Of a DNA stretch of 64,000 nucleotides, positions 17,950-54,647 are shown in pieces; within the stretch, counting starts at the first letter, position 1; every line of letters begins with the position of its first letter. Both the position numbers and the translations under genes were made by a program. Location: contig CAVQBA010000004.1 of NCBI GenBank assembly GCA_963710605.1, positions 160,001-224,000 of the forward strand. The letters are read 5' to 3'. The DNA is from an uncultured cyanobacterium (lineage in GTDB: Bacteria > Cyanobacteriota > Cyanobacteriia > Cyanobacteriales > Cyanobacteriaceae). Under the pieces are notes generated by a model that worked only from the letters and a program-made list of their open reading frames with translations, made no database searches and was not told where the DNA came from.

Positions 17950-18249
<300 letters not shown>

Positions 18250-24039: not shown

Positions 24040-24207
24040 ATGAAATATGAAATTAAATTAATTCAAAGTGAGGAAGGATACGCAGTATGTTGTCCTCAAC
24101 TTAAAGGATGTTGGAGTGAGGGAAAAACAAAACCTGAAGCGATTGAAAATATCAAAGATGCAATTCAAGAATATTTACAAGCTAAAAAAGAAGATGAAAG
24201 CATTTGA
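24040..24207 (+). CDS. Short orphan HicB-family antitoxin (55 aa, not in ORF track)
   Basis: MKYEIKLIQSEEGYAVCCPQLKGCWSEGKTKPEAIENIKDAIQEYL…. Confidence 0.75.
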   Translation: MKYEIKLIQSEEGYAVCCPQLKGCWSEGKTKPEAIENIKDAIQEYLQAKKEDESI

Positions 24208-24439
24208 AACAACAGCAAAAGTAAATAAAAATGGTCAATTATTATTAAACGAGCCTTTAAATATTGATGAAGATAGCGAAGTAAAAGTAATTGTTTTAGT
24301 CTCAGAAAAATCTGAATACGAGCCTGATGATACACCAGTAGAAGAAATAAAAGCAAGTTTAAGAGTAGCTTTGCAAGAAGTAAAAGAAGGAAAAACTCAA
24401 CCTATCTCACAGTTATGGAAGGGAGTTAATGTTGAATAA
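24194..24439 (+). CDS. RelN-like type II antitoxin (true start probably ATG 24194)
   Basis: MKAFETTAKVN…LLLNEPL…VKVIVL…EEIKASLRVALQEVKEGKTQPISQLW. Confidence 0.65.
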   Translation: MKAFETTAKVNKNGQLLLNEPLNIDEDSEVKVIVLVSEKSEYEPDDTPVEEIKASLRVALQEVKEGKTQPISQLWKGVNVE

Positions 24440-24492
24440 TACTTCTTTTTTTCCTATTCACAAATGAATTTAAGAAAAATGTTTTTACTTAG
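24429..24492 (+). pseudogene. N-terminal stub of the cognate RelE/ParE-type toxin
   Basis: ATG overlaps the antitoxin 3' end. With one T removed from a T7 run it reads MLNNTSFFLFTNEFKKNV, then runs into the convergent gene. Confidence 0.4.
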
Positions 24493-24682
24493 AATGGCGT
24501 TTAACAAAATCCAAGTATTGATTTAAATCTTCTGGAGATTCTAAAGGTGGCATTTCCACCCAGTTTCCTTCTTCATGTAATTTATCTACATAAGCATAAA
24601 ATGCTTCTCGATCGTCTCGATGTGTCATAAAATAATTATGTAATTGCTGACGATTCATATTTTTAAAATTAGGTTTATTCAT
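24485..24682 (-). CDS. DUF6887-like small protein
   Basis: MNKPNFKNMNRQQLHNYFMTHRDDREAFYAYVDKL. Confidence 0.7.
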   Translation of the reverse strand: MNKPNFKNMNRQQLHNYFMTHRDDREAFYAYVDKLHEEGNWVEMPPLESPEDLNQYLDFVKRHSK

Positions 24683-24858
24683 TGGATATATCTCCACTTT
24701 CCATTGGGATAGATTTCAATAATATTTTCATCTCCTGCTAGGAGAAAAATATTACCTGTTCGATCGTCAAGACGAACTATATTAATTGGTAAATAAAGTT
24801 TGGTAAACCAACAGCATAATATATAACACTGGGTTTTTTGCTGTAACGTTGGAATAAT
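24679..24858 (-). CDS. DUF6888-like small protein (not in ORF track; no ATG, possible ATT start)
   Basis: IIPTLQQKTQCYILCCWFTKLYLPINIVRLDDRTGNIFLLAGDENIIEIYPNGKWRYIQ*; stop overlaps the next ATG (ATGA). Confidence 0.6.
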   Translation of the reverse strand: MIPTLQQKTQCYILCCWFTKLYLPINIVRLDDRTGNIFLLAGDENIIEIYPNGKWRYIQ

Positions 24859-24910
24859 ATTTCTCTTTTTCTCATTTTTAATTATAGGATTGTGAGTAAA
24901 AAATTGGCGA

Positions 24911-24952
24911 ATACGATCGTTTAAATTTTGATGTTAATACTAACTCTCTCAT
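24911..24952 (-). pseudogene. N-terminal stub of a YafQ-type toxin
   Basis: MRELVLTSKFKRSY begins in an ATGA overlap with the upstream antitoxin stop, then loses similarity just after CGATCG. Confidence 0.55.
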
Positions 24953-25173
24953 ACATCCTCATTTAGTGTTGCATCTAACTCACTAAGGATAAAATCAAAC
25001 GATTGCGATCGTAATTTACCTTGATGAAATAAAGCAATATTTTTTTTGGCATCTTCTGCTATTTCTTGACGGCTATTTTCTATTAGTTGATTTTTGACAA
25101 TTTCAATTAACATTTCTCTTTGTTCGATAGGAAGTTTATTTACCGTTAAAAGTGCTTCTTCTAATGTAGTCAT
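24949..25173 (-). CDS. Putative antitoxin (74 aa)
   Basis: TLEEAL…LPIEQREMLIEIV…RQEIAEDA pattern; coupled to a toxin stub. Confidence 0.6.
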   Translation of the reverse strand: MTTLEEALLTVNKLPIEQREMLIEIVKNQLIENSRQEIAEDAKKNIALFHQGKLRSQSFDFILSELDATLNEDV

Positions 25174-25236
25174 AGTATTTTAATCTAACTAGTTTTTTAT
25201 TTTTAGGATAGTATTATTAACAAAAGATGATACTTA

Positions 25237-25518
25237 TTAAGAAACTACTTCTATTTTTACTTCCATACCAGCTTTTGCTAACATATTTAATAATTTATCT
25301 ACACTAAAACAAGAAATATTACCATTGATTAAGTTGCTTATTTGAGATTGAGTTTCTTTAAAAAACACAGAAGCTTGTTTTTCAGTCCAACCTCAATCGA
25401 GAATAAAAGAACGTAACTCTAACATTAAATCTGCTTTGATTTTAAGATTCATTGCTTCATCAGGTGAAAAACCCAAATCTACAAAGACATTTTCATTACC
25501 AAAAGTTATTTCTGTCAT
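25237..25518 (-). CDS. HigA-like HTH/XRE antitoxin with internal TGA at codon 42 (not in ORF track)
   Basis: MTEITFGNENVFVDLGFSPDEAMNLKIKADLMLELRSFILD*GWTEKQAS…ISNLINGNISCFSVDKLLNMLAKAG. Confidence 0.75.
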
Positions 25519-25522
25519 ATTT

Positions 25523-25864
25523 TTATAGTTGCAATTCTTTTCTTATTTTAATCATTTGCTGATAGCGTTTTTTTCCTAATTCAATATCTTTTTTTGATGT
25601 TTTTTGAGTCTTTTTTCCAAAAGCATGAAGAATATAAACTGCTTCAGGAAATCTAGCAACATAAAAAACACGATAAGTATCTCCTGTCCAAATTCTAATT
25701 TCTTGTGTACCTTTACCAATAATGGATATTGATTTGAAATGGGTAGGTTTTTCTCCTTTTTGAATTGCTCTTAGTTCAAAACCTGCTTTACGTCTAGCTT
25801 CTTCAGAAAAATTACGTATATCTTCTTTTGATGTGCCAACCCAATGGATTGGTTTATCTTTCAT
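25523..25864 (-). CDS. HigB/RelE-like toxin (Gp49/DUF891 type)
   Basis: KPIHWVGTS…EIRI…YRVFYVARFPEAVYILHAFGKKTQKT. Confidence 0.85.
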   Translation of the reverse strand: MKDKPIHWVGTSKEDIRNFSEEARRKAGFELRAIQKGEKPTHFKSISIIGKGTQEIRIWTGDTYRVFYVARFPEAVYILHAFGKKTQKTSKKDIELGKKRYQQMIKIRKELQL

Positions 25865-26063
25865 TATTTTGTTTTTTAATCTGCTTGTGGTTACAATTTA
25901 GTTAGAGTCATAAATTTAAGATACCACTAAGCGATCGTGATTCTTATCTCTAAACACAGAAAAAATAGTTGAAATCGCAATTAGACATCGATCGTACTAT
26001 CTGAAAAAATATTTCTGATTATTCTTAATAACGTTTATGTTTATGTTATTTATATTATTGTTA

Positions 26064-26987
26064 TTAAAGCTCAGTATATATAGCAATTGGATCTATTACT
26101 ATTTCATTAGGCATTTTGCCACTAAATGATTCTTCAATATTTGCTAATATCTCTATCATATTAATAATAGCTTGTTTCGGTGTTTCTGCTTCAAATTCTT
26201 GATCTACAGTGAAGTTGCTTGTATTTATTGTTTTCTCCGAGGATTGAGTAATAATACCAAAAATAACTAATTCTTTTTCTGTTTTTCTAGAATATTTTCT
26301 AATTAAAATATCTTCATTTTCTCGCAAATAATCTCGCTTTAAAAGGGAAGAGAATGAAACCTTATCAACGTCTTGTCGTATTTCTAATTGATTTTGATAT
26401 CCATATTGAATTAATGAAGATAAGCTTTCCAAGATAGTTTCATTGTAGTGAAGACCATTTTTTTTAGCCTTTATTATAAGAGGATCATTTTTACCATTTG
26501 CCTTATTTGTTTTCCCCTGAAATCCTTTTTGCTTAGTATCTATAATTATTTTTTCGCAAAGTTGAGGATTTTGTATACAAGTAATGGCTTTTCCAAAAGA
26601 ATTAAAATTTTTTATTAAGTGATCCATTTTGTCAATATCATTAAAAGTAGCTTTAGCACTAACTTTGATAAAAGATTTCTTTTCTTCAAAATCTTTTTCT
26701 GAAATATTTGTTTTTGAATTAACTACCAAAACTTTTTCTTGCCCAATTAATTTTTCTTCAAATAATGAGTATGAATAATCATGAAGATATCTTTTTTCAG
26801 TTTTACTATTACTAGAATTTATTACATCTGCAACAATTCTACCACTCCCAATTTCTCCTTTTTGCGATTCAGATTTTTCTTCTTCTTTTTCATTTTTATT
26901 TAAAATATAGTCAGTAATCCCTTCAAAAATTTGAGATGATAATGAATACATTTTTGGTTCGTCCAAATATATTAAATTTTTTATCAT
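26064..26987 (-). CDS. DUF6414-like protein
   Basis: N-terminal IYLDEPKMYSLSSQIFEG and C-terminal IDPIAIY; family name recalled, not searched. Confidence 0.6.
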   Translation of the reverse strand: MIKNLIYLDEPKMYSLSSQIFEGITDYILNKNEKEEEKSESQKGEIGSGRIVADVINSSNSKTEKRYLHDYSYSLFEEKLIGQEKVLVVNSKTNISEKDFEEKKSFIKVSAKATFNDIDKMDHLIKNFNSFGKAITCIQNPQLCEKIIIDTKQKGFQGKTNKANGKNDPLIIKAKKNGLHYNETILESLSSLIQYGYQNQLEIRQDVDKVSFSSLLKRDYLRENEDILIRKYSRKTEKELVIFGIITQSSEKTINTSNFTVDQEFEAETPKQAIINMIEILANIEESFSGKMPNEIVIDPIAIYTEL

Positions 26988-27115
26988 TTTTTATTTCTTC
27001 TTCTATTTAAATATTCTTGATAATATTTTTTTCTAGTATCGTAAATTGACCAAACAAAAACACTAATACCAATAATAACGAATAAAGATGTAGTTATCAC
27101 AATAATTGTGTTCAT
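26984..27115 (-). CDS. 43-aa single-pass membrane peptide (not in ORF track)
   Basis: MNTIIVITTSLFVIIGISVFVWSIYDTRKKYYQEYLNRRRNKK*; ATGA overlaps with both neighbours. Confidence 0.8.
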   Translation of the reverse strand: MNTIIVITTSLFVIIGISVFVWSIYDTRKKYYQEYLNRRRNKK

Positions 27116-27528
27116 TTTCTTTCCTCATCAGTTGGTAAAAGTGAAATTCTATAGTAAATTGAAAAGCTAAGAAGAAGCGATACAAATGATGAGATTAAAC
27201 AGCAACAATCTAGATTTCTTGAATTAATTATAGAATTTACGTTTTCACTCAGTAATACTAAACAAAATAAAGCACTATAAAAAATTATAAAAGCTAATGA
27301 TATACCATTTTGTATTGTTTTCCAAGAAAAGTCTCTTGATTGAATGTGTTCAATTTCATTAATATTTGAAATATGTAATACTAAACCAAAAGTAATAAAA
27401 TCAGAAGCATTGATCAAACTAACAGTATCGTTTACTGTAACAAAATATATTATTAGTCTTAACAAAATAGGAATTAAACCAACAAGTACAGTGTAAATTA
27501 ACCATTTTATTATTTTGTTTTTTTTCAT
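27112..27528 (-). CDS. Hypothetical protein with about four transmembrane segments
   Basis: Four hydrophobic stretches in 138 aa; first gene of the coupled operon. Confidence 0.75.
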   Translation of the reverse strand: MKKNKIIKWLIYTVLVGLIPILLRLIIYFVTVNDTVSLINASDFITFGLVLHISNINEIEHIQSRDFSWKTIQNGISLAFIIFYSALFCLVLLSENVNSIINSRNLDCCCLISSFVSLLLSFSIYYRISLLPTDEERK

Positions 27529-27599
27529 TTGGGACTACTTTAAACTTTACTTTTTGGCATATTAGATATTTACAGCAAATGCACCATAAAATATACTTA

Positions 27600-30420
27600 T
27601 TAATCCTCTAAAATAATATTTTCACGATGAGCTTTAACTAGACTCAACTCTTCACTACTAACCTGTTCTAACATATAACATAACCTGTCGGGCGACAATA
27701 AAGAACCATCATTTTTAGCACTACCTGTATAAGTAATATTTACCTCACTTAACGCTTCATCACCTTTACTTAATAAAGAAACAGAACGTAAATTAGGTCG
27801 AATATTAATCATTTTCGTGCTACCACGTCGATGTCTTTTTATTCGGTTTCATTTTCTTCTCAAACATAATCTCATCAGTATTAATAACATCATCTATCCA
27901 TGACTGCCATTGAGAAGGAGTAAACGTATTTTCACCCGCCGAAATAGTTACGGTATATTCAGCAGTATCTAGAATTTGAGTTGCTTTCTGAGATTTGAGA
28001 GGTAATTCTTTGACTTCATAAATAGGTAAATCAGCAGGTATTTGAGCTTTTAATTTTTCGGTAAACTCATCTAAATTCATCCGAGTATGATTTTCAAATT
28101 CGACAATTTCGCCACTACTAGTCATACCTAATGATAAAGCTAAAGCGATCGAAATCTTTGGTTCATGGATGAAAACCACCTGTATAAGTAATCGGAATAC
28201 CCGCACGTCGAACAGCTCGATCGAACAAACGTGCTAAATCTAAATGACTCAGTAAAGCCATATCTCCTTGTTTACCAAACCAAACCCGAATTTTTTGAGC
28301 CTTTTCTTGATTCGGTTTAAAATCGCCCACATAATCGGGTATAGGCGGAGGAGTAACTACAATATTATGACCAAAAGCAGGTTCGCAAACACCACAACTA
28401 CTACAACCATCAAAAGCACAATCGGGCACAGTTGCCTCTTGTAACGCTCTTTCTAAATCGTCTTTTAACCATTGTTTATCAATACCTGTATCTAAATGAT
28501 CCCACGGTAACTTTATATCGTCTAACCTCACCCCTACCCTCTCCTTAGTAAGGAGAGGGAGTTCATTTGTAGAAGAATGATTAGCCTCAGCAGACTCCTC
28601 AAGTTTCCCTCCTTTCAAGGGGGGATTAAGGGGGGTTTGTGTTTCTCCTTCCAAGGGGGGTTGGGGGATTCTTCTATGGCTTGATTAAGGGGTTGGGGGG
28701 TTTGTTCGTCATTAGGGGTTTGTGGTTCAAAAATATTCCATTCACCACTCTCGACTAAACGGTATTTCCAAGTCAATCCTGCTTCATCGATCGCTGTCGC
28801 CCACGCACCATAAGCCTTATCTATACTTTCCCACCAAGAATCCATCCCCGCACCTAATTCCCATGCCCGACGCACTACAGAAGCTAAACGTCTGTCTCCA
28901 CGCCCGACAAAATCTTCGATCGCTGAGATACGCACATCAGTATAATTAACTTTAGTACCACGGATGTTGTAAAATTGCTCTCTCAATAAATCTTGTTTAC
29001 GCAAAAATTCCGAAGTTGAAACCGAATGCCATTGAAAAGGAGTATGAGGTTTAGGAGTAAAGTTTGAGATAGTGATATTAAAATTCAGACTTTTATTACT
29101 CAAATGATTACATTCTTGTCTTAACCACTTCACCGTCTCCGCAATACCGATAACATCTTCATCAGTTTCCCCTGGTAAACCAATCATAAAATAAAGTTTG
29201 ACTTGCTTCCAACCTTCTTTTACTGCGGTTTGGATACCTCTTAATAACTCTTCATTGGTTAAACCTTTGTTGATAATATCTCGCATTCTTTGCGTACCAG
29301 CTTCGGGGGCAAATGTCAACCCTGTTTTACGTGTACCGCCGATAATATTAGCAATATTTTCATCAAATCGATTGACTCTTTGACTCGGTAAAGATAAAGA
29401 TATATTTTCCCCTTGCAGACGATTTTTAATTTCAATCCCTACCGCAGGTAAAGATAGATAATCCGAGCAACTCAAAGATAATAAGGAAAACTCATTAAAA
29501 CCTGTTTCCTTCATTCCTTCAACGATACTTTCAACCACATCTTCAGGTTCGACATCACGGGCAGGACGAGTCAACATTCCTGGTTGACAAAAACGACATC
29601 CTCTGGTACAGCCTCTTCTAATTTCGACAGTTAAGCGATCGTGTACTGTTTCTACATAAGGCACTAAACCGATCGAATATGCAGGAATAGGTGTGGCAAC
29701 TCGACGCAAGATTCTTTTTGGCACATCATCACGATTACGTTTAACACTGCCATCGGATTGCATATCGTAAAATTGCGGTACGTAAACACCCGGCACTTGA
29801 GCCAAATCTAAGAGTAATTCTTCTCTGCTTAAACCATCTTTTTTACCTTCTTCAATCACAAAACCAATTTCGGGTAACAATTCCTCTCCATCACCCATGA
29901 CAACAAAATCAAAAAAGTCGGCATAAGGCTCAGGATTTGAGGTTGCTGTTTGCCCACCTGCAAAAATAAAAGGATAGTCAGTATTATTTCTTTCTCGCCA
30001 TGTTAAAGGAATATCAGCTATACTGAGCATTTCTAAGATATTAGTTGCCCCTAACTCGTAACTCAAGCTAAAACCTAAAATATCAAATTCTTTAACGTCT
30101 CGTTTTGATTCAAGGGCGAACAAGGGGGTATTTGTTTCCCTCATCTTTTGAGCTAAATCTGGTGCTGGTAAATACGATCGATCGCATAATTGATGGGGTT
30201 GAGCATTTAAGATGTTGTAAAGAATTATATGCCCTAAATTTGACGCACCCACTTCATACACTTCAGGATAAGTTAATACCCATCTGACGTTAGCCGATTC
30301 CCAAGGTTTATTTTTTGCTCCTAATTCATTGCCCAAATAACGGGCAGGTTTCATTATCTCTGGTGTGATTAGTTTGTCAGTTGCGATCAGAGCTTCGCTC
30401 TGCCATTTCATGCTCGTCAT
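27600..30420 (-). CDS. B12-binding radical SAM protein (TIGR03960 type) fused to a TIGR03936/DUF2344 domain, split by three frameshifts (~28650, ~28162, ~27838)
   Basis: KPARYLGNE, RGCTRGCRFCQPG, LPWDHLDTG, CAFDGCSSCGVC, SHLDLARLFDRAVRR…GGFHP and ALSLG across four consecutive ORFs. Confidence 0.88.
28526..28704. repeat. Cluster of small dispersed C/G-run repeats inside the coding linker
   Basis: CCTCACCCCTACCCTCTCCTTAGTAAGGAGAGGG (28526), TCCCTCCTTTCAAGGGGGGATTAAGGGGGG (28606) and two degenerate copies; related intergenic copies at 33412 and 59843. Confidence 0.8.
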
Positions 30421-49009: not shown

Positions 49010-50446
49010 ATGGCTTTAACTTTATATAATACCCTGACCAAGCAAGAAGAAGAATTAAAATCTCTACAACCAAATCAAATATCTATGTATTGCTGTGGTA
49101 TTACAGCATATGATTATTGTCATTTAGGTCATGCTCGTACTTGCATTACATGGGATATAGTCAGACGTTACCTTACTTGGAGAGGATATAAAGTTAGATA
49201 TATCCAAAATTTTACAGATATTGACGATAAAATTCTTAACCGTGCTAGAAGAGAAAATAGCACCATGGAAGAAGTTGCCGATCGTTTTATCGATGCTTAT
49301 TTTGAAGATATGGATAATCTGAATGTCGAAAAAGCTGATTCTTATCCTCGTGCAACTCATACTCTTGATGGGATTAAAAAATTAATTTGGCAGTTAGAAG
49401 AAAAAGGATTTGCTTATCAAGCCCAAGGTGATGTTTATTATTCAGTCGCTAAATTTGCTGATTATGGTAAATTGTCAGGACGCAAATTAGATGATGTGCA
49501 AGTAGGAGCAAGTGGTAGGGTTGGTAGTAGTATAAATATCAAGCAGGAGTCCTCTGATTTTGCCCTCTGGAAAAGTGCGAAACCCGATGAACCAAGTTTT
49601 GAATCAAAATGGGGAAAAGGTCGTCCAGGTTGGCATATAGAATGTTCAGCAATGGTCAGAGAAGTATTAGGAGAAACGATCGATATTCACGTAGGTGGTA
49701 ATGATTTAGTTTTTCCTCATCACGAAAACGAAATTGCTCAATCAGAAGCAGTTACAGGTAAACCATTAGCTAATTATTGGTTACATAATGGGATGGTAAA
49801 AGTAGGTGGTGAAAAAATGTCGAAATCTTTAGGTAATTTTGTCACCATTCGTGATTTATTAGCTAAATATGATCCTATGGCGATACGTTTATTTATTTTA
49901 CAAGCGAATTATCGTAAACCGCTCGACTTTACCGATTCAGCTATGGAGGCGGTGACAAATGGTTGGCAAACTTTAGTAGATGGATTACTTTTTGCTAGTC
50001 AGTATGGTTCACAGCTCAAAATGCCACCAGAAAACCAGCTAGAACCTATTAAATCAGTTGTCGAACAATTTAGTCAAGTAGTCGATCGAGATTTTAATTT
50101 TTCATCGGGTTTAGCTATTTTATTTGATTTGGCTAAAGAATTACGTAAAGAAGCTAATGTTTTCACTCATGAAGGCAAAACAAATCTTTCGATTGAAGAA
50201 TTAGCCCAAAAATGGCAAACCCTTGTTCATCTTGCTTCTGTATTAGGTTTAGAAGCTCAAGATAATAATGAGCTAACTAGCAAATCTGATATGATTGATA
50301 GTGAAATTGAAAACTTAATTGAGCAACGTAATGCCGCTCGTTTAGCTAAAGATTACGCCCAAAGCGATCGAATACGTGATGTGCTAAAAGCTAAAGGCAT
50401 CACCTTAGTTGATAGTAAAGAAGGTACTAAATGGCATCATAATTAA
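49010..50446 (+). CDS. cysS: Cysteine-tRNA ligase (start revised to ATG 49010)
   Basis: HLGH, GRPGWHIEC, KMSKS. Confidence 0.96.
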   Translation: MALTLYNTLTKQEEELKSLQPNQISMYCCGITAYDYCHLGHARTCITWDIVRRYLTWRGYKVRYIQNFTDIDDKILNRARRENSTMEEVADRFIDAYFEDMDNLNVEKADSYPRATHTLDGIKKLIWQLEEKGFAYQAQGDVYYSVAKFADYGKLSGRKLDDVQVGASGRVGSSINIKQESSDFALWKSAKPDEPSFESKWGKGRPGWHIECSAMVREVLGETIDIHVGGNDLVFPHHENEIAQSEAVTGKPLANYWLHNGMVKVGGEKMSKSLGNFVTIRDLLAKYDPMAIRLFILQANYRKPLDFTDSAMEAVTNGWQTLVDGLLFASQYGSQLKMPPENQLEPIKSVVEQFSQVVDRDFNFSSGLAILFDLAKELRKEANVFTHEGKTNLSIEELAQKWQTLVHLASVLGLEAQDNNELTSKSDMIDSEIENLIEQRNAARLAKDYAQSDRIRDVLKAKGITLVDSKEGTKWHHN

Positions 50447-50486
50447 GAAATAAGAAAACGTAAATAACTAACAAAAGACTAAAACT

Positions 50487-53400
50487 ATGAAAGCTAATTT
50501 AAAATCAATTAACTTTTATTTATTATTATTAATTGCTTTAGCTTACTTAGGAAATTATTTTAAAGTCACTCTTTTCTTCGGAATTGACTTTATTTTTGGG
50601 AGTATTTTTGTTTGGATAGTCAGTATTTTATGGGGTAAATTTTGGGGAACTATAACAGGATTTGTTGGTTCTATTTATACCTATTTTTTGTGGGGACATC
50701 CTTATGCTATTGTAATTTTCACCTTAGAAGCTATTTTAGTTAATTATTATTATCCACAAAAAAATAGAAATATAATTTTAGTTGATATTTTTTATTGGCT
50801 GTTTGTTGGGATACCCTTAGGTTTTGTTTTTTATTATTTTGTTTTGAATATTTCTTTAATAGAAACTACTTTAATTGTTTTAAAACAACCAGTTAACGCA
50901 ATATTTAATGTTATTTTAGCCAATGTAATTATAAACTTACTAGCAGTAAGAAGCTTAACTTATTTTAAGAACAAAAACTTTGTCTTATCTTTTAAACAAA
51001 ACTTGTTTAATTTACTATTGATATTTATTTTTATTCCTACCTTGGCTATCACTGTCATTAATGGAAATAAAATAGCTGTTCAACAAGAAGCTGAAATTAT
51101 TCATGAATTAGAAGAGACAACTGAACACTTAAAATTGGATTTTGTTAGTTGGCAAAATCTACATTTTAATCTTTTAGATAAAATAGATGCTAATGATTTG
51201 AATAATCAAAGTTTATTAAATAACAAAATAGATAATTTAAATGGTATTTTAGTTGATATTGAGGTTATTTTTGTAGCTGATGCTCAAGGTGAAATAATTG
51301 CTTACGCTTCTACTCCTAATTATCCCATAACAAATATTATTGGTCAAAATATTAGTGGGAGTGAAGAATTTGAAACAATTAAACTGGAAAATCAAAAGAG
51401 AATTTACGATTTTAATTCAGATAAAATCTTTACCCGAAAGCACGTATCAATACTTAAGCCTTTAATTGATGAAGATAGTAATTTTCAAGGGGTATTTTAT
51501 GCCGTAATTTCTCAAGATAAAATTGAGCAGTTTCTTAATTATCACGAAGATGAAGAAGACGTTAATATATCACTTTTAAATAATAATAATGAAGTGATTA
51601 CGAGTAACCAAAAAAATAAAGATACAACAGTAATAAATTGGAATAATACTCAAGTAAAAAAGGAGATAATAACTAACAATATCGAGCATTTGTTACCAAT
51701 TAATCCTAGTCTTCCGATTATGAAGATATGGAGCGAATCGGTATATATTAAAAAAACAAAATTATCTCCCCAAATACCTTGGAATATTGTTGTTCAAGTT
51801 CCGGCAAAACCTTATATAAAAGAGTTGAGTAAAAGTTATGCCGAGTCTCTTTCTCTCTTATTTATTACTACGATGGTAGCATTTTGGTTAGCTGAAAAAT
51901 ATAGTGATAAATTAGTTTTACCGTTAAAATATTTGGGAGAAAATACAACTAATTTACCGAAAAAAATATTGTATGAGCAAGAAGAATTTGTTTGGCAAGG
52001 GACTAATATACAAGAAATAGAATTATTAGTCGAAAATTATCGATCGATGATTGGGGCATTAAAAGAAAAATTTGATCAAATCAATCAATCAAGACAAAGT
52101 TTAACTCTACAAGTAGAAGAAAGAACAAAAGTTTTACAACAACAAATAGAAGAAAAAAGAGAGATTGAAAAATTACTTAGAGAAAGAGAACAAAGATACG
52201 AATTAGCAGTTTCAGGTACTAATGATGGACTTTGGGATTGGAATTTAAAAAACAATCATGTTTATTATTCCCCTGCTTGGATGCGTATTTTAGGTTATCA
52301 AGCAAATGGTTTACCACCAATAATCGAATCTTGGTTTCACCGTATTCATGAAGAAGATTTAGAAGATAATTTACAAGCAATACACTCTTATACCAACAAA
52401 GAAACAGATTTATATCAAAGTATTCATCGTATTCAACATTCGGATGAGCATTATCTTTGGATTTTAGCTAAAGGTAAAATGGATCAAGATGAGCAAGGGA
52501 AAGTTTATCGTCTAGTAGGTACTATCACCGACATTACCGAAAAAATTAAAACAGAACAAGAAATACAATTAGCAATTGAAGAAGCAGAAGCGGCAAATAG
52601 AGCTAAAAGTGATTTTTTAGCAACTATGAGTCACGAAATTAGAACACCGATGAATGCTGTTATAGGTATGACAGGATTACTATTAGATACACCTTTAAAC
52701 AACGAACAAAAAGAATTTACCGAAATAATTCGTACTAGTGCTGATAGTCTGCTAACTATTATTAATGATATTCTTGATTTTTCTAAAATAGAGTCAGGTA
52801 AACTAGAACTAGAATGTCAAAATTTTTCTTTAATTAGTGTGGTTGAGGAATCTTTAGATTTAATTGCACCTAAAGCAAGTAGCAAAAATATCGAATTAGC
52901 CTATTTTATTGATATAGATGTACCAGTAAATATTAATGGTGATATAACTCGTTTAAGACAAATTTTAGTTAATTTACTCACTAATGCGGTTAAATTTACG
53001 CCAACTGGTGAGGTAGTCATTCAAGTAAAGGTTATCAATCAAAAAATAATTAAGGAATATTTAAATGAATATGAATTAATTTTTACCGTCACTGATACAG
53101 GTATTGGTATTCCCGAAAGTAGGATGGATAGATTATTTAAAGCTTTTTCTCAGGTAGATGCTTCAACTACTCGTAATTATGGAGGTACAGGTTTAGGTTT
53201 AGCTATTTGTACTCGCTTGATTAAAATGATGAAGGGCAAAATATGGGTAGAAAGCCAAGGTAAAATCAGTGGCGATTATCCTGAGTATTGGCAAGTATCT
53301 TCTACTACAGATGATTTGGGTTCAGTTTTTGGCTTTACGGTAAAAACAAAAATTAGTAATATTTTACCTCAGTTAGAAATTCCTCATCCCACTGAGTTAA

Positions 53401-54647
53401 AAAATAAATCCGTCTTAATTGTTGATGATAATGAAACTAATCGACAAGTATTGATTATTCAATGTCAGAAATTAGGGATGAAGACAATTGTTGCATCTTC
53501 AGGGAAAGAAGCTTTGTTGATGTTGAAAAATAAGTACCAAAAAACTGAGGTTGCTATTTTAGATATGCAGATGCCTGCTATGGATGGTGTTACTTTGGCT
53601 AAACAAATTCATTCAATTCCTGATTTTCATAGTTTACCTTTGATTTTACTAAGTTCGATTGGTCAATTAGAAAATAATAATTATATTCGACAAGTTAATT
53701 GGCACACAATTATCAATAAACCAATTAAACAATCTCAACTATCGGACATTTTGATCAACGTTTTTAGTTCTAAATCAGGACAAGATAATTCTTTTGTGGT
53801 TCAAAATAACGTACATTCTCAATTTGAAGATATTGCTAGTGTTACACCATTAAAAATTTTGATTGCTGAAGATAATATTGTTAACCAAAAAGTTATCACC
53901 AATATTCTTAAGCGTTTGGGTTATCGTGCTGATGTGGTAGCTAATGGTTTAGAAGTTTTAGAGACATTACGTCGTCAATCTTATGATTTAATTTTAATGG
54001 ATGTACAGATGCCAGAAATGGATGGCTTGACTGCAACTAGACAGATTCGCACTTTATGGCACTCTCCTAATAGTAATTTTCAAGGTAATCCTCCTTCTAT
54101 CATAGCGATGACGGCTAATGCCATGGAAGGCGACAGGGAAAACTGTTTAGCGGCAGGAATGGATGATTATTTATCTAAACCTGTACGGATTAATCAATTG
54201 ATGTCAAAATTAAAAAATTTAAAATCTAATTATCCCATTTCAGAAGATAATCATAAAATAGAAGAAAGTAAAAAAGAACCAGCACAAGTTGTGAATTTAG
54301 ATTCTCAGGCAATTTTGGAATTAAAAGATATGATTGGCGAAGAAGATTTTGTGGCGGTTTTTACCGAACTAGTAGAAACTTATCTAGAAGATAGCCCTAA
54401 TTTAATTCAGGCTTTGATTATTGGGGCTAAAAATCAAAATATAGAAGAGGTTAAAATTAATGCCCATAGCCTCAAATCTAGTAGTGCCACTTTAGGAGCG
54501 ATGACATTTTCGCAAATCTGTAAACAAATAGAATCTTACTGCATTAAGGGAAAATTAGTTGAAGCACGGGCTTTGATACCTCAATTAGAAGATAATTATC
54601 AACAAACTCAAGTTTTGCTCAACCGTGAAATTGAAAAGTTATCTTAA
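50487..54647 (+). CDS. Membrane hybrid sensor kinase (multi-TM, Cache-like, PAS, HisKA, HATPase, 2 REC, Hpt)
   Basis: GLWDWN PAS, MSHEIRTPMN, GGTGLGL, two receivers, AHSLKSSS Hpt. Confidence 0.9.
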   Translation: MKANLKSINFYLLLLIALAYLGNYFKVTLFFGIDFIFGSIFVWIVSILWGKFWGTITGFVGSIYTYFLWGHPYAIVIFTLEAILVNYYYPQKNRNIILVDIFYWLFVGIPLGFVFYYFVLNISLIETTLIVLKQPVNAIFNVILANVIINLLAVRSLTYFKNKNFVLSFKQNLFNLLLIFIFIPTLAITVINGNKIAVQQEAEIIHELEETTEHLKLDFVSWQNLHFNLLDKIDANDLNNQSLLNNKIDNLNGILVDIEVIFVADAQGEIIAYASTPNYPITNIIGQNISGSEEFETIKLENQKRIYDFNSDKIFTRKHVSILKPLIDEDSNFQGVFYAVISQDKIEQFLNYHEDEEDVNISLLNNNNEVITSNQKNKDTTVINWNNTQVKKEIITNNIEHLLPINPSLPIMKIWSESVYIKKTKLSPQIPWNIVVQVPAKPYIKELSKSYAESLSLLFITTMVAFWLAEKYSDKLVLPLKYLGENTTNLPKKILYEQEEFVWQGTNIQEIELLVENYRSMIGALKEKFDQINQSRQSLTLQVEERTKVLQQQIEEKREIEKLLREREQRYELAVSGTNDGLWDWNLKNNHVYYSPAWMRILGYQANGLPPIIESWFHRIHEEDLEDNLQAIHSYTNKETDLYQSIHRIQHSDEHYLWILAKGKMDQDEQGKVYRLVGTITDITEKIKTEQEIQLAIEEAEAANRAKSDFLATMSHEIRTPMNAVIGMTGLLLDTPLNNEQKEFTEIIRTSADSLLTIINDILDFSKIESGKLELECQNFSLISVVEESLDLIAPKASSKNIELAYFIDIDVPVNINGDITRLRQILVNLLTNAVKFTPTGEVVIQVKVINQKIIKEYLNEYELIFTVTDTGIGIPESRMDRLFKAFSQVDASTTRNYGGTGLGLAICTRLIKMMKGKIWVESQGKISGDYPEYWQVSSTTDDLGSVFGFTVKTKISNILPQLEIPHPTELKNKSVLIVDDNETNRQVLIIQCQKLGMKTIVASSGKEALLMLKNKYQKTEVAILDMQMPAMDGVTLAKQIHSIPDFHSLPLILLSSIGQLENNNYIRQVNWHTIINKPIKQSQLSDILINVFSSKSGQDNSFVVQNNVHSQFEDIASVTPLKILIAEDNIVNQKVITNILKRLGYRADVVANGLEVLETLRRQSYDLILMDVQMPEMDGLTATRQIRTLWHSPNSNFQGNPPSIIAMTANAMEGDRENCLAAGMDDYLSKPVRINQLMSKLKNLKSNYPISEDNHKIEESKKEPAQVVNLDSQAILELKDMIGEEDFVAVFTELVETYLEDSPNLIQALIIGAKNQNIEEVKINAHSLKSSSATLGAMTFSQICKQIESYCIKGKLVEARALIPQLEDNYQQTQVLLNREIEKLS

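Follow-up and report, generated by a model that had tools for sequence, protein, structure and literature searches.

Kiwa combines KwaA, a protein with four transmembrane (TM) helices, with KwaB, a DUF4868 protein. Dodola was reportedly described by Millman et al. in 2022. A review passage names DUF6414 as the DolA component of this tested system, in which it occurs with DolB, a ClpB-like ATPase (bioRxiv 10.1101/2024.10.26.620412, PMC11514479). For the RexAB-type system of Pseudomonas putida prophage P1, experiments showed that a 4-TM RexB-type effector (RexBpp) damages membranes when activated (PMC12894663). In phage lambda, the layout of which we checked, rexA and rexB directly follow cI and encode proteins of 279 and 144 aa. 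Here we analyze a three-gene cassette on the minus strand of a 64,000-nucleotide stretch of DNA from an uncultured cyanobacterium (GenBank assembly GCA_963710605.1, contig CAVQBA010000004.1, positions 160,001 to 224,000; hereafter, the window). The cassette encodes a 4-TM protein (gene A), a very small membrane peptide (gene B) and a soluble DUF6414 protein (gene C). It is an intact copy of a widespread, self-contained and horizontally mobile three-gene unit, and we regard it as a candidate defence cassette that is well supported and includes a conserved micropeptide.

With Dodola, the cassette shares membership of C in DolA's Pfam family, PF19952 (an assignment by Pfam membership), and it is likewise a small mobile operon found in defence-type contexts. 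Unlike Dodola, it has no ClpB-like or other ATPase gene in or beside it, and the partners of C are instead the 4-TM protein and the micropeptide, both encoded upstream. In the window, C is preceded by these two genes and followed by a Gp49/HigB-like gene, with no DolB. Likewise, none of the 119 nearest flanking open reading frames (ORFs; those of at least 110 aa were counted) at 64 loci has a ClpB- or Clp-type Pfam match. We therefore rejected identity with Dodola, as the defining ATPase partner is absent.

The original prediction, made from the letters of the window, named three minus-strand ORFs, and the ORF list of the window contains all three with the coordinates, sizes and strand that it gave (Table 1). 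The claim of a hidden 43-aa ORF is also correct, in that B exactly fills the 124 bp that separate A from C (26988-27111). Both the A/B and the B/C junctions read ATGA in the sequence, so that each stop codon overlaps the next start by four bases. Judged by these overlaps, the three genes are translationally coupled. A, B and C are all intact, and they keep every invariant column of the alignments, in which the window sequence is itself one row.

Table 1. Coordinates of the cassette genes and the adjoining spacers in the window.
Feature	Position	Strand	Description
Gene A	27528-27112	minus	138 aa; four predicted TM helices, inner-membrane
Gene B	27115-26984	minus	43 aa; one predicted TM helix and a basic aromatic tail
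Gene C	26987-26064	minus	307 aa; soluble, Pfam DUF6414 (PF19952), DolA family
Spacer 5' of gene A	27529-27599	minus	71 nt; promoter presumed
Spacer 3' of gene C, before the Gp49/HigB-like gene	25865-26063	minus	199 nt

Hidden Markov models (HMMs) built from alignments A2-A4 recovered the complete trio, collinear on one strand, in 68 of the 80 genome loci that were collected starting from C. Four more had B and C, one had A and C, and seven had C only; among the four BC loci, one lies at a contig edge and three carry a remnant of B. On viral contigs the trio was complete in 45 of 49 cases, the others being one BC contig, truncated at the contig edge, and three AC contigs. The HMMs were built from the window and 29 of the 80 genome loci, and only the remaining loci are independent of them. 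A first heuristic looked for an ORF with one hydrophobic helix ending at the start of C and a multi-helix ORF before it. Of the 74 loci in which C is intact, 64 had the small ORF by this criterion, and 56 had both partners. When the search started from A, 80 metagenome loci yielded 52 with ABC, 24 with AB and 4 with A only. Each of the four loci with A only is cut off by a contig end, with < 220 nt downstream, and B follows A in each of the 76 loci where this could be tested. The stop/start overlaps recur, mostly as 4 nt between A and B and as 4 or 8 nt between B and C, and no conserved fourth gene was found in the flanks of the cassette loci. The cassette is almost certainly a real conserved operon, and the proposal that its three genes are inherited together is borne out by the collinear ABC order in both the genome and the viral sets.

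Several variant arrangements were noted in these sets. Three loci of Poribacteria (L001, L034 and L044) are without the 4-TM gene and have a DUF2321 plus DpnII/MboI-type restriction endonuclease gene upstream of a peptide remnant and DUF6414; these loci adjoin type ISP restriction enzymes. In a high-GC lineage (L188-L192, L202-L212 and L216), DUF6414 is missing, and the 4-TM gene and a degenerate gene for the peptide are fixed beside radC and an arginyl-tRNA synthetase-like gene. Another locus (L219; G159:C15:50929-53631) has a distant homologue of the 4-TM protein (E 3e-11) and, after it, a protein of ~ 160 aa with one TM helix at its start. Before this pair comes a long ORF that is open at the locus start, and on its two sides are near-identical copies of another gene's 5' end, with the same N-terminal peptide at 1334 and 2349. 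This looks like an insertion that duplicated its target.

The product of B has a single hydrophobic helix followed by a tail with 8 lysine or arginine residues in 19, which includes D-T-R-K-K-Y-Y-Q-E-Y. Across 64 aligned small ORFs, the family motif is a hydrophobic helix ending in G-x-x-V-x-x-W-S and then D-T-R-K-K-Y-Y-x-E-Y-L-x-R-K-R, with the core W-S-x-x-D-T-R-K-K-Y-Y. A profile of B, searched against 1.84 billion representative proteins, gave 260 matches at E ≤ 1e-3 and 47 at E ≤ 1e-10, and nearly all of the 150 best matches listed are 40-65 aa long. In the GenBank record of Vibrio phage 10N.286.54.E4_PE001, B is an annotated coding sequence. Because the profile finds 40-65-aa proteins in the representative set, B is by this measure a bona fide small-protein family that is often predicted by gene callers. 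The peptide gene is thus real, as had been proposed, with frame and motif conserved across phyla above chance in both the small-ORF alignment and the profile search. In the metagenome set, the aromatic tail motif is found in 46 of 52 ABC loci versus 5 of 24 AB loci, and the latter are mostly one lineage and hence not independent. The difference hints, and no more, that the tail of B may be kept for C. Long ORFs that start with a B-like helix in two loci (L172, 345 aa; L194, 628 aa) have no Pfam family; they are perhaps read-through artefacts and were not used as evidence.

The AlphaFold2 (AF2) model of A is a four-helix bundle with a mean predicted local distance difference test (pLDDT) score of 91.6 and helices at residues 2-30, 41-61, 67-96 and 103-130, and a hydropathy scan agrees. 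The N-terminus is basic, with 4 lysine or arginine residues within 8, and the end of helix 2 together with the start of helix 3 carries a conserved polar patch (H-I-S-N-I-N-E-I-E-H, then W-K-T-x-Q-N-G). By the positive-inside rule, the N-terminus, the C-terminus and the polar patch would all face the cytoplasm. The A family comprises 629 clusters (90% identity) at E ≤ 1e-3, named hypothetical save for a mislabelled few, and its alignment (A2) has a mean column identity of 50%, better conserved than the small ORFs. Neither A nor B has a match among Pfam, NCBIfam or PADLOC families. The A model has no Foldseek match in the PDB at E ≤ 1e-3, an absence that excludes nothing, and PDB sequence-profile searches with A2 and with the gene C alignment (A4) returned chance-level rows only. 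In some JGI records, 4-TM members are called 'CRISPR/Cas system CMR-associated protein Cmr3', a name that, on a 137-aa membrane protein, looks like an annotation error. Some members of the 4-TM family also bear a precomputed DUF2178 tag; these two labels were noted among P0128, P0146, P0156, P0230 and P0232.

Gene C matches PF19952 over its full length (E 3.7e-25, 89.7 bits against a gathering cut-off of 25, profile positions 2-283 of 283; 89.1 bits in a whole-genome scan). Its N-terminal block, Y-L-D-E-x-K-M-Y-S / S-S-Q-I-F-E-G, is nearly invariant in alignments A1 and A4, and the protein has no hydrophobic window. Homologues number 366; in the 120 best listed, identity to the window protein is 41-54%, and many phyla are represented. 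C also matches phrog_9699, a PHROG of unknown function, with E 3.3e-10. The AF2 model (pLDDT 71.9) has a beta core plus helices. A lead from the ESM Atlas, DUF7019 (0.91, with 163 shared features), is weak, as its recognition value of 1391 is below the guide of 2300. A comparison with gasdermin clusters, prompted by a CHAT protease upstream of C in one relative (L038), gave 0.75 in the ESM Atlas, which is under the lead threshold. Gasdermin is missing from the Foldseek and VIA lists, and fold searches of the A and C models left RexA, KwaA and KwaB unmatched too; such absence excludes nothing.

The cassette loci come from ~ 12 phyla. In a maximum-likelihood tree of C (86 rows, namely the window, those genome loci in which C is intact and has 250 aa or more, and 17 viral loci out of 49, with near-duplicates avoided), near-identical proteins occur across phyla and families, for example in Vreelandella and Arcobacter, or in Aliiglaciecola and a Piscirickettsiaceae genome. 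The nearest relative of the window protein in this tree is a Spirulina protein with 50% identity. Closer to the host, which is represented by a genome that is 84.9% complete in 7 contigs and has A as a single copy, one of 40 relatives has PF19952, and none of the 19 genomes of its family does; the sole same-genus genome is only 67% complete. Profile A2 matches 4 of 401 genomes sampled from the phylum: strongly in the host and in G256, where the trio is complete, distantly in G159 and marginally in a fourth genome, within a 415-aa ORF. The DNA of the trio has no match in the 5 nearest genomes. In these genomes rne-rnhB and the radical-SAM gene are not adjacent, and the boundaries of an insertion are not definable by synteny. 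The trio itself has a GC content of 0.251 versus 0.330 for the window, a value reached in only 2 of 626 sliding windows of 1465 nt, and it is the lowest-GC stretch of its length in the 64 kb. CGATCG is absent from 25989-28146, where 2.8 copies would be expected in the trio (Poisson P0 ~ 0.06 in a post-hoc test). The low GC that had been noted in sampled lines therefore applies to the operon as a whole, and the reported lack of CGATCG is confirmed. Given the patchy presence in relatives, the lack of a DNA match in the nearest genomes and the dip in GC, the cassette looks horizontally acquired by the host, as also foreseen in the original prediction.

A further line of evidence comes from loci in which C has other partners. 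In three of them (L029:3367-3993, L040:3406-4005 and L056:3411-3992), a gene for a Mrr_cat nuclease-like protein (~ 200 aa) overlaps the start of C. In another (L038:2974-4005), the overlapping gene encodes a 343-aa CHAT protease (PADLOC 'chat', 9e-19), and in the last (L039:3697-4005) it encodes a 102-aa protein with a weak EAD9 match. These are five of the seven C-only genome loci, and their C proteins form one clade (SH-aLRT 90, inner node 97) nested inside the ABC radiation. As the five C proteins with swapped partners nest within this radiation, the membrane pair appears to have been replaced by other potentially lethal enzymes in that clade. All five loci look like further unnamed DUF6414-based two-gene modules. 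A constant protein with interchangeable membrane, nuclease or protease partners is the usual mark of a conflict system built from a sensor or switch and an effector. Partner swapping thus suggests a division into a soluble sensor and membrane effectors.

The genomic setting was surveyed in the same 119 flanking ORFs. PADLOC matches at E ≤ 1e-10 were found for 22, of which five look like housekeeping genes (PolA, MutY twice, adenosine deaminase and RmuC). The remaining 17 are defence or candidate-defence genes, including LmuB, type IIG/ISP restriction-modification (two), methyltransferases, PDC-S20 KAP NTPases (three), PDC-S57, PD-Lambda-1, PD-T4-4 A and B, SngC/BrxH, Vsr, an Aga-type restriction endonuclease and PDC-S32. 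Another eleven of the ORFs encode six integrases, three CI-type repressors, a resolvase and a transposase, and four more encode the toxins HepT, PemK and PIN (two). The position in prophages says more than these neighbour counts. In six loci (L089, L090, L133, L031, L057 and L066), the cassette is directly downstream of a CI repressor gene and co-oriented with it, although some of the last three are the same elements as viral contigs. Vibrio phage 10N.286.54.E4_PE001 (PQ189350.1) has the order apl, cI, A, B, C, int, which is the lysogenic operon, and three other prophages (L121, L131 and L091) carry the cassette as a moron, placed in the tail or head module. In the window itself, a toxin-antitoxin (TA) array (24040-25864; HicB-like, DUF6887, HTH_37 and Gp49/HigB-like genes) adjoins the cassette. 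The TA array reported earlier is therefore real, and the suggestion of a defence-type setting fits what is seen elsewhere, where the cassette occurs in defence islands and prophage lysogeny regions.

So, what might the cassette do? Our main reading, to which we give a probability of roughly 0.6, is an unnamed module for anti-phage abortive infection or exclusion that operates in the manner of lambda RexAB. The specific path from sensor to membrane is a rather tentative proposal, prompted by the sensor/effector-type partner swapping and by the parallel with RexAB in size and in lysogenic-operon position. C would be the constant soluble sensor or switch that detects infection. By way of B's cytoplasmic tail and A's conserved cytoplasmic patch, it would then open or disrupt the membrane assembly of A and B. 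Membrane integrity would collapse and phage growth would stop, as in abortive infection. We infer the defence function, the sensor and killer roles and the physical contact between A, B and C alike.

Several findings weigh against a RexAB-like defence role. In the 72 metagenome loci where 400 nt or more of downstream sequence is available, C follows A and B in 50 and is missing from 22, so that the membrane pair is kept without its supposed sensor; ~ 14 of the AB-only loci are one high-GC lineage, fixed beside radC-argS. Many loci lie between housekeeping genes (alaS/lysC, polA, ylqF/mutY, leuS, rne), and the defence-type neighbours are counts without a background rate and are suggestive. The C tree rests on a quick rather than a careful search. 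The model of C gives no functional clue, with no match at E ≤ 1e-3 in the Foldseek searches of the PDB and BFVD; its best VIA wide match, 3f1z (Z 5.8, root-mean-square deviation 3.5, 105 aligned residues), and many further matches to OB folds (Z 4-5.4) are under the noise guide of Z 8. Sequence alone does not tell the sensing from the killing protein. PADLOC-DB 2.0.0 has no model that matches A, B, C or 8 other DUF6414 variants; for DolA, if the library includes such a model, C and these variants gave no match at E ≤ 10, and HMMER filters drop weak matches. The original prediction recognized no named system with this layout, and the PADLOC result agrees for all three genes, but C belongs to the family of Dodola's DolA. 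Because PADLOC gives no match, the link to Dodola rests on Pfam membership and the review's statement. In the literature searched, with supplementary tables of discovery screens outside its scope, no paper was found to name the trio, DUF6414 appears in one review preprint and PF19952 in none, and no mechanistic Dodola paper from 2023 onward was found among those listed.

The pattern of a constant C with unrelated, potentially toxic genes upstream would also be expected of a toxin-antitoxin or addiction module. A and B would then form a holin-like membrane toxin, and DUF6414 would be a promiscuous antitoxin or regulator that also neutralizes Mrr-like nucleases and CHAT proteases, and the module would chiefly stabilize prophages and islands rather than stop phages. 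The window copy lies inside a TA array, and TA toxins (HepT, PemK, PIN twice) are frequent neighbours. A SocA/Panacea protein lies behind one AB locus, and antitoxins with a Panacea domain have many toxin partners. We nevertheless think such a module unlikely, as A and B persist without C in the whole radC lineage, which is hard to reconcile with an unguarded toxin, and as the review passage reports DUF6414 as a required component of Dodola. In addition, C has no relative among 72,556 plasmid records, which is unexpected for an addiction module. This explanation also overlaps with an abortive-infection role, since many TA modules are abortive-infection systems.

In superinfection exclusion (Sie), A and B would keep incoming phages out at the envelope, by preventing DNA entry or receptor function, without killing the cell, and C would be an accessory or assembly factor. 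We regard this as improbable, as an intracellular nuclease-like or protease gene replaces the membrane pair in close relatives of C, which points to an intracellular response, and many copies lie outside prophages. It would, however, account for the place of the cassette in P2/186-like and lambdoid prophages, where it belongs to the lysogenic cI-int operon, and two of the three products are predicted to be small inner-membrane proteins. Sie-type proteins are typically small membrane proteins. A non-conflict membrane function (envelope stress, transport or a phage lysis-timing accessory) that hitch-hikes in variable regions is very improbable, given the extremely patchy, cross-phylum distribution, the atypical GC, the moron sites in prophages, the 17 defence genes among 119 neighbours and the swapping of partners with a nuclease and a protease. 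On its side are the many loci between housekeeping genes, the lack of a match to a known defence model and the AB-only version fixed beside radC-argS in one lineage.

Turning to the surroundings in the window, a consensus scan found no minus-strand promoter-like sites in the spacer 5' of A, and a terminator scan found no terminator-like hairpins in the spacer 3' of C, but both scans are uninformative in AT-rich DNA (the scanned region had 13 promoter-like sites versus 12.8 by shuffling). A repeat search around the cassette returned low-complexity AT-rich matches only. The adjacent miniature inverted-repeat transposable elements that had been suggested did not hold up in the one stretch tested, the 3' spacer, which matches itself alone in the whole genome. 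Beyond this spacer, the Gp49/HigB-like toxin gene (25523-25864, minus) is followed by an HTH_37 antitoxin gene that appears split into two short ORFs (25393-25518 and 25237-25368), and DNA homologous to this module sits elsewhere in two related genomes. On the other side, the gene 5' of the cassette (27600-30420, minus), with Radical_SAM_N2 plus Radical_SAM and DUF2344, is broken into four ORFs in different frames (28615-30420, 28163-28654, 27820-28206 and 27600-27812), and relatives match it as two adjoining blocks. Both split genes could reflect real decay or assembly indel errors. The sole other stretch of the window with GC < 0.27 (50200-52300) looks ordinary and belongs to a 1386-aa hybrid histidine kinase (50487-54647), in whose N-terminal sensor part it lies. 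An 81-aa protein of PsaC-like size with two 4Fe-4S motifs is encoded at 17950-18195 (minus), and the window holds 11 copies of GCGATCGC and 123 of CGATCG, both consistent with a cyanobacterial host.

If the cassette protects against phages, the defence catalogue would gain a system that is both compact and very widespread, with a 4-TM family that ranges from cyanobacteria to Bacteroidota, Chloroflexota and prophages of Vibrio and Pseudomonas. The cassette would also give the uncharacterized DolA/DUF6414 family a tractable context. A broader proposal, which we consider a serious possibility though not one we would favour as yet, is that DUF6414/DolA is the constant hub of a large unnamed modular defence family with an interchangeable effector slot. 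The trio, found in ~ 12 phyla and many prophages, would then be a new Rex-like membrane abortive-infection system in which B is an essential tether or gate between sensor and pore. The slot would be filled by the 4-TM protein and micropeptide (by far the commonest occupants in this subfamily), a Mrr-like nuclease, a CHAT protease or, in Dodola, the ClpB-like ATPase. The same protein beside a membrane module, nuclease, protease or ATPase would be a natural domain-swap series for revealing which component senses and which kills. The conserved gene for a ~ 43-aa micropeptide, which is probably essential to a multi-protein machine, is of a kind easily missed in annotation. Three profiles now recognize the trio and replace three 'hypothetical' labels, or the 'Cmr3' mislabel of some JGI records.

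Regardless of its eventual classification, the cassette invites comparison with RexAB of lambda and P. putida, with which it shares a 4-TM protein of ~ 140 aa and a soluble protein of ~ 280-310 aa, and, in relatives rather than in the window itself, the co-oriented position in prophages just 3' of cI. It differs from Rex in having the membrane gene first, a reversed order, and in the conserved micropeptide gene, which Rex lacks. Membership was rejected: alignment by hhalign gave probabilities of 0.2% for A4 (C) against RexA and 0.1% for A2 (A) against RexB, both of lambda, and the Pfam RexA and RexB families had no matches at E ≤ 1. RexA was also absent from the 50 best VIA rows, which alone is inconclusive.

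Kiwa similarly pairs a small multi-pass membrane protein with a soluble partner of ~ 300 aa. Membership here was rejected as well, since A, B and C have no Pfam DUF4868 match and no PADLOC KwaA or KwaB match at E ≤ 1. For the C model, Foldseek listed a KwaA chain (9mrg_A) at noise level only (E 1.1), and for the A model it listed none. By analogy, then, the cassette is one that resembles RexAB or Kiwa in design and genomic position, and it is a member of neither.

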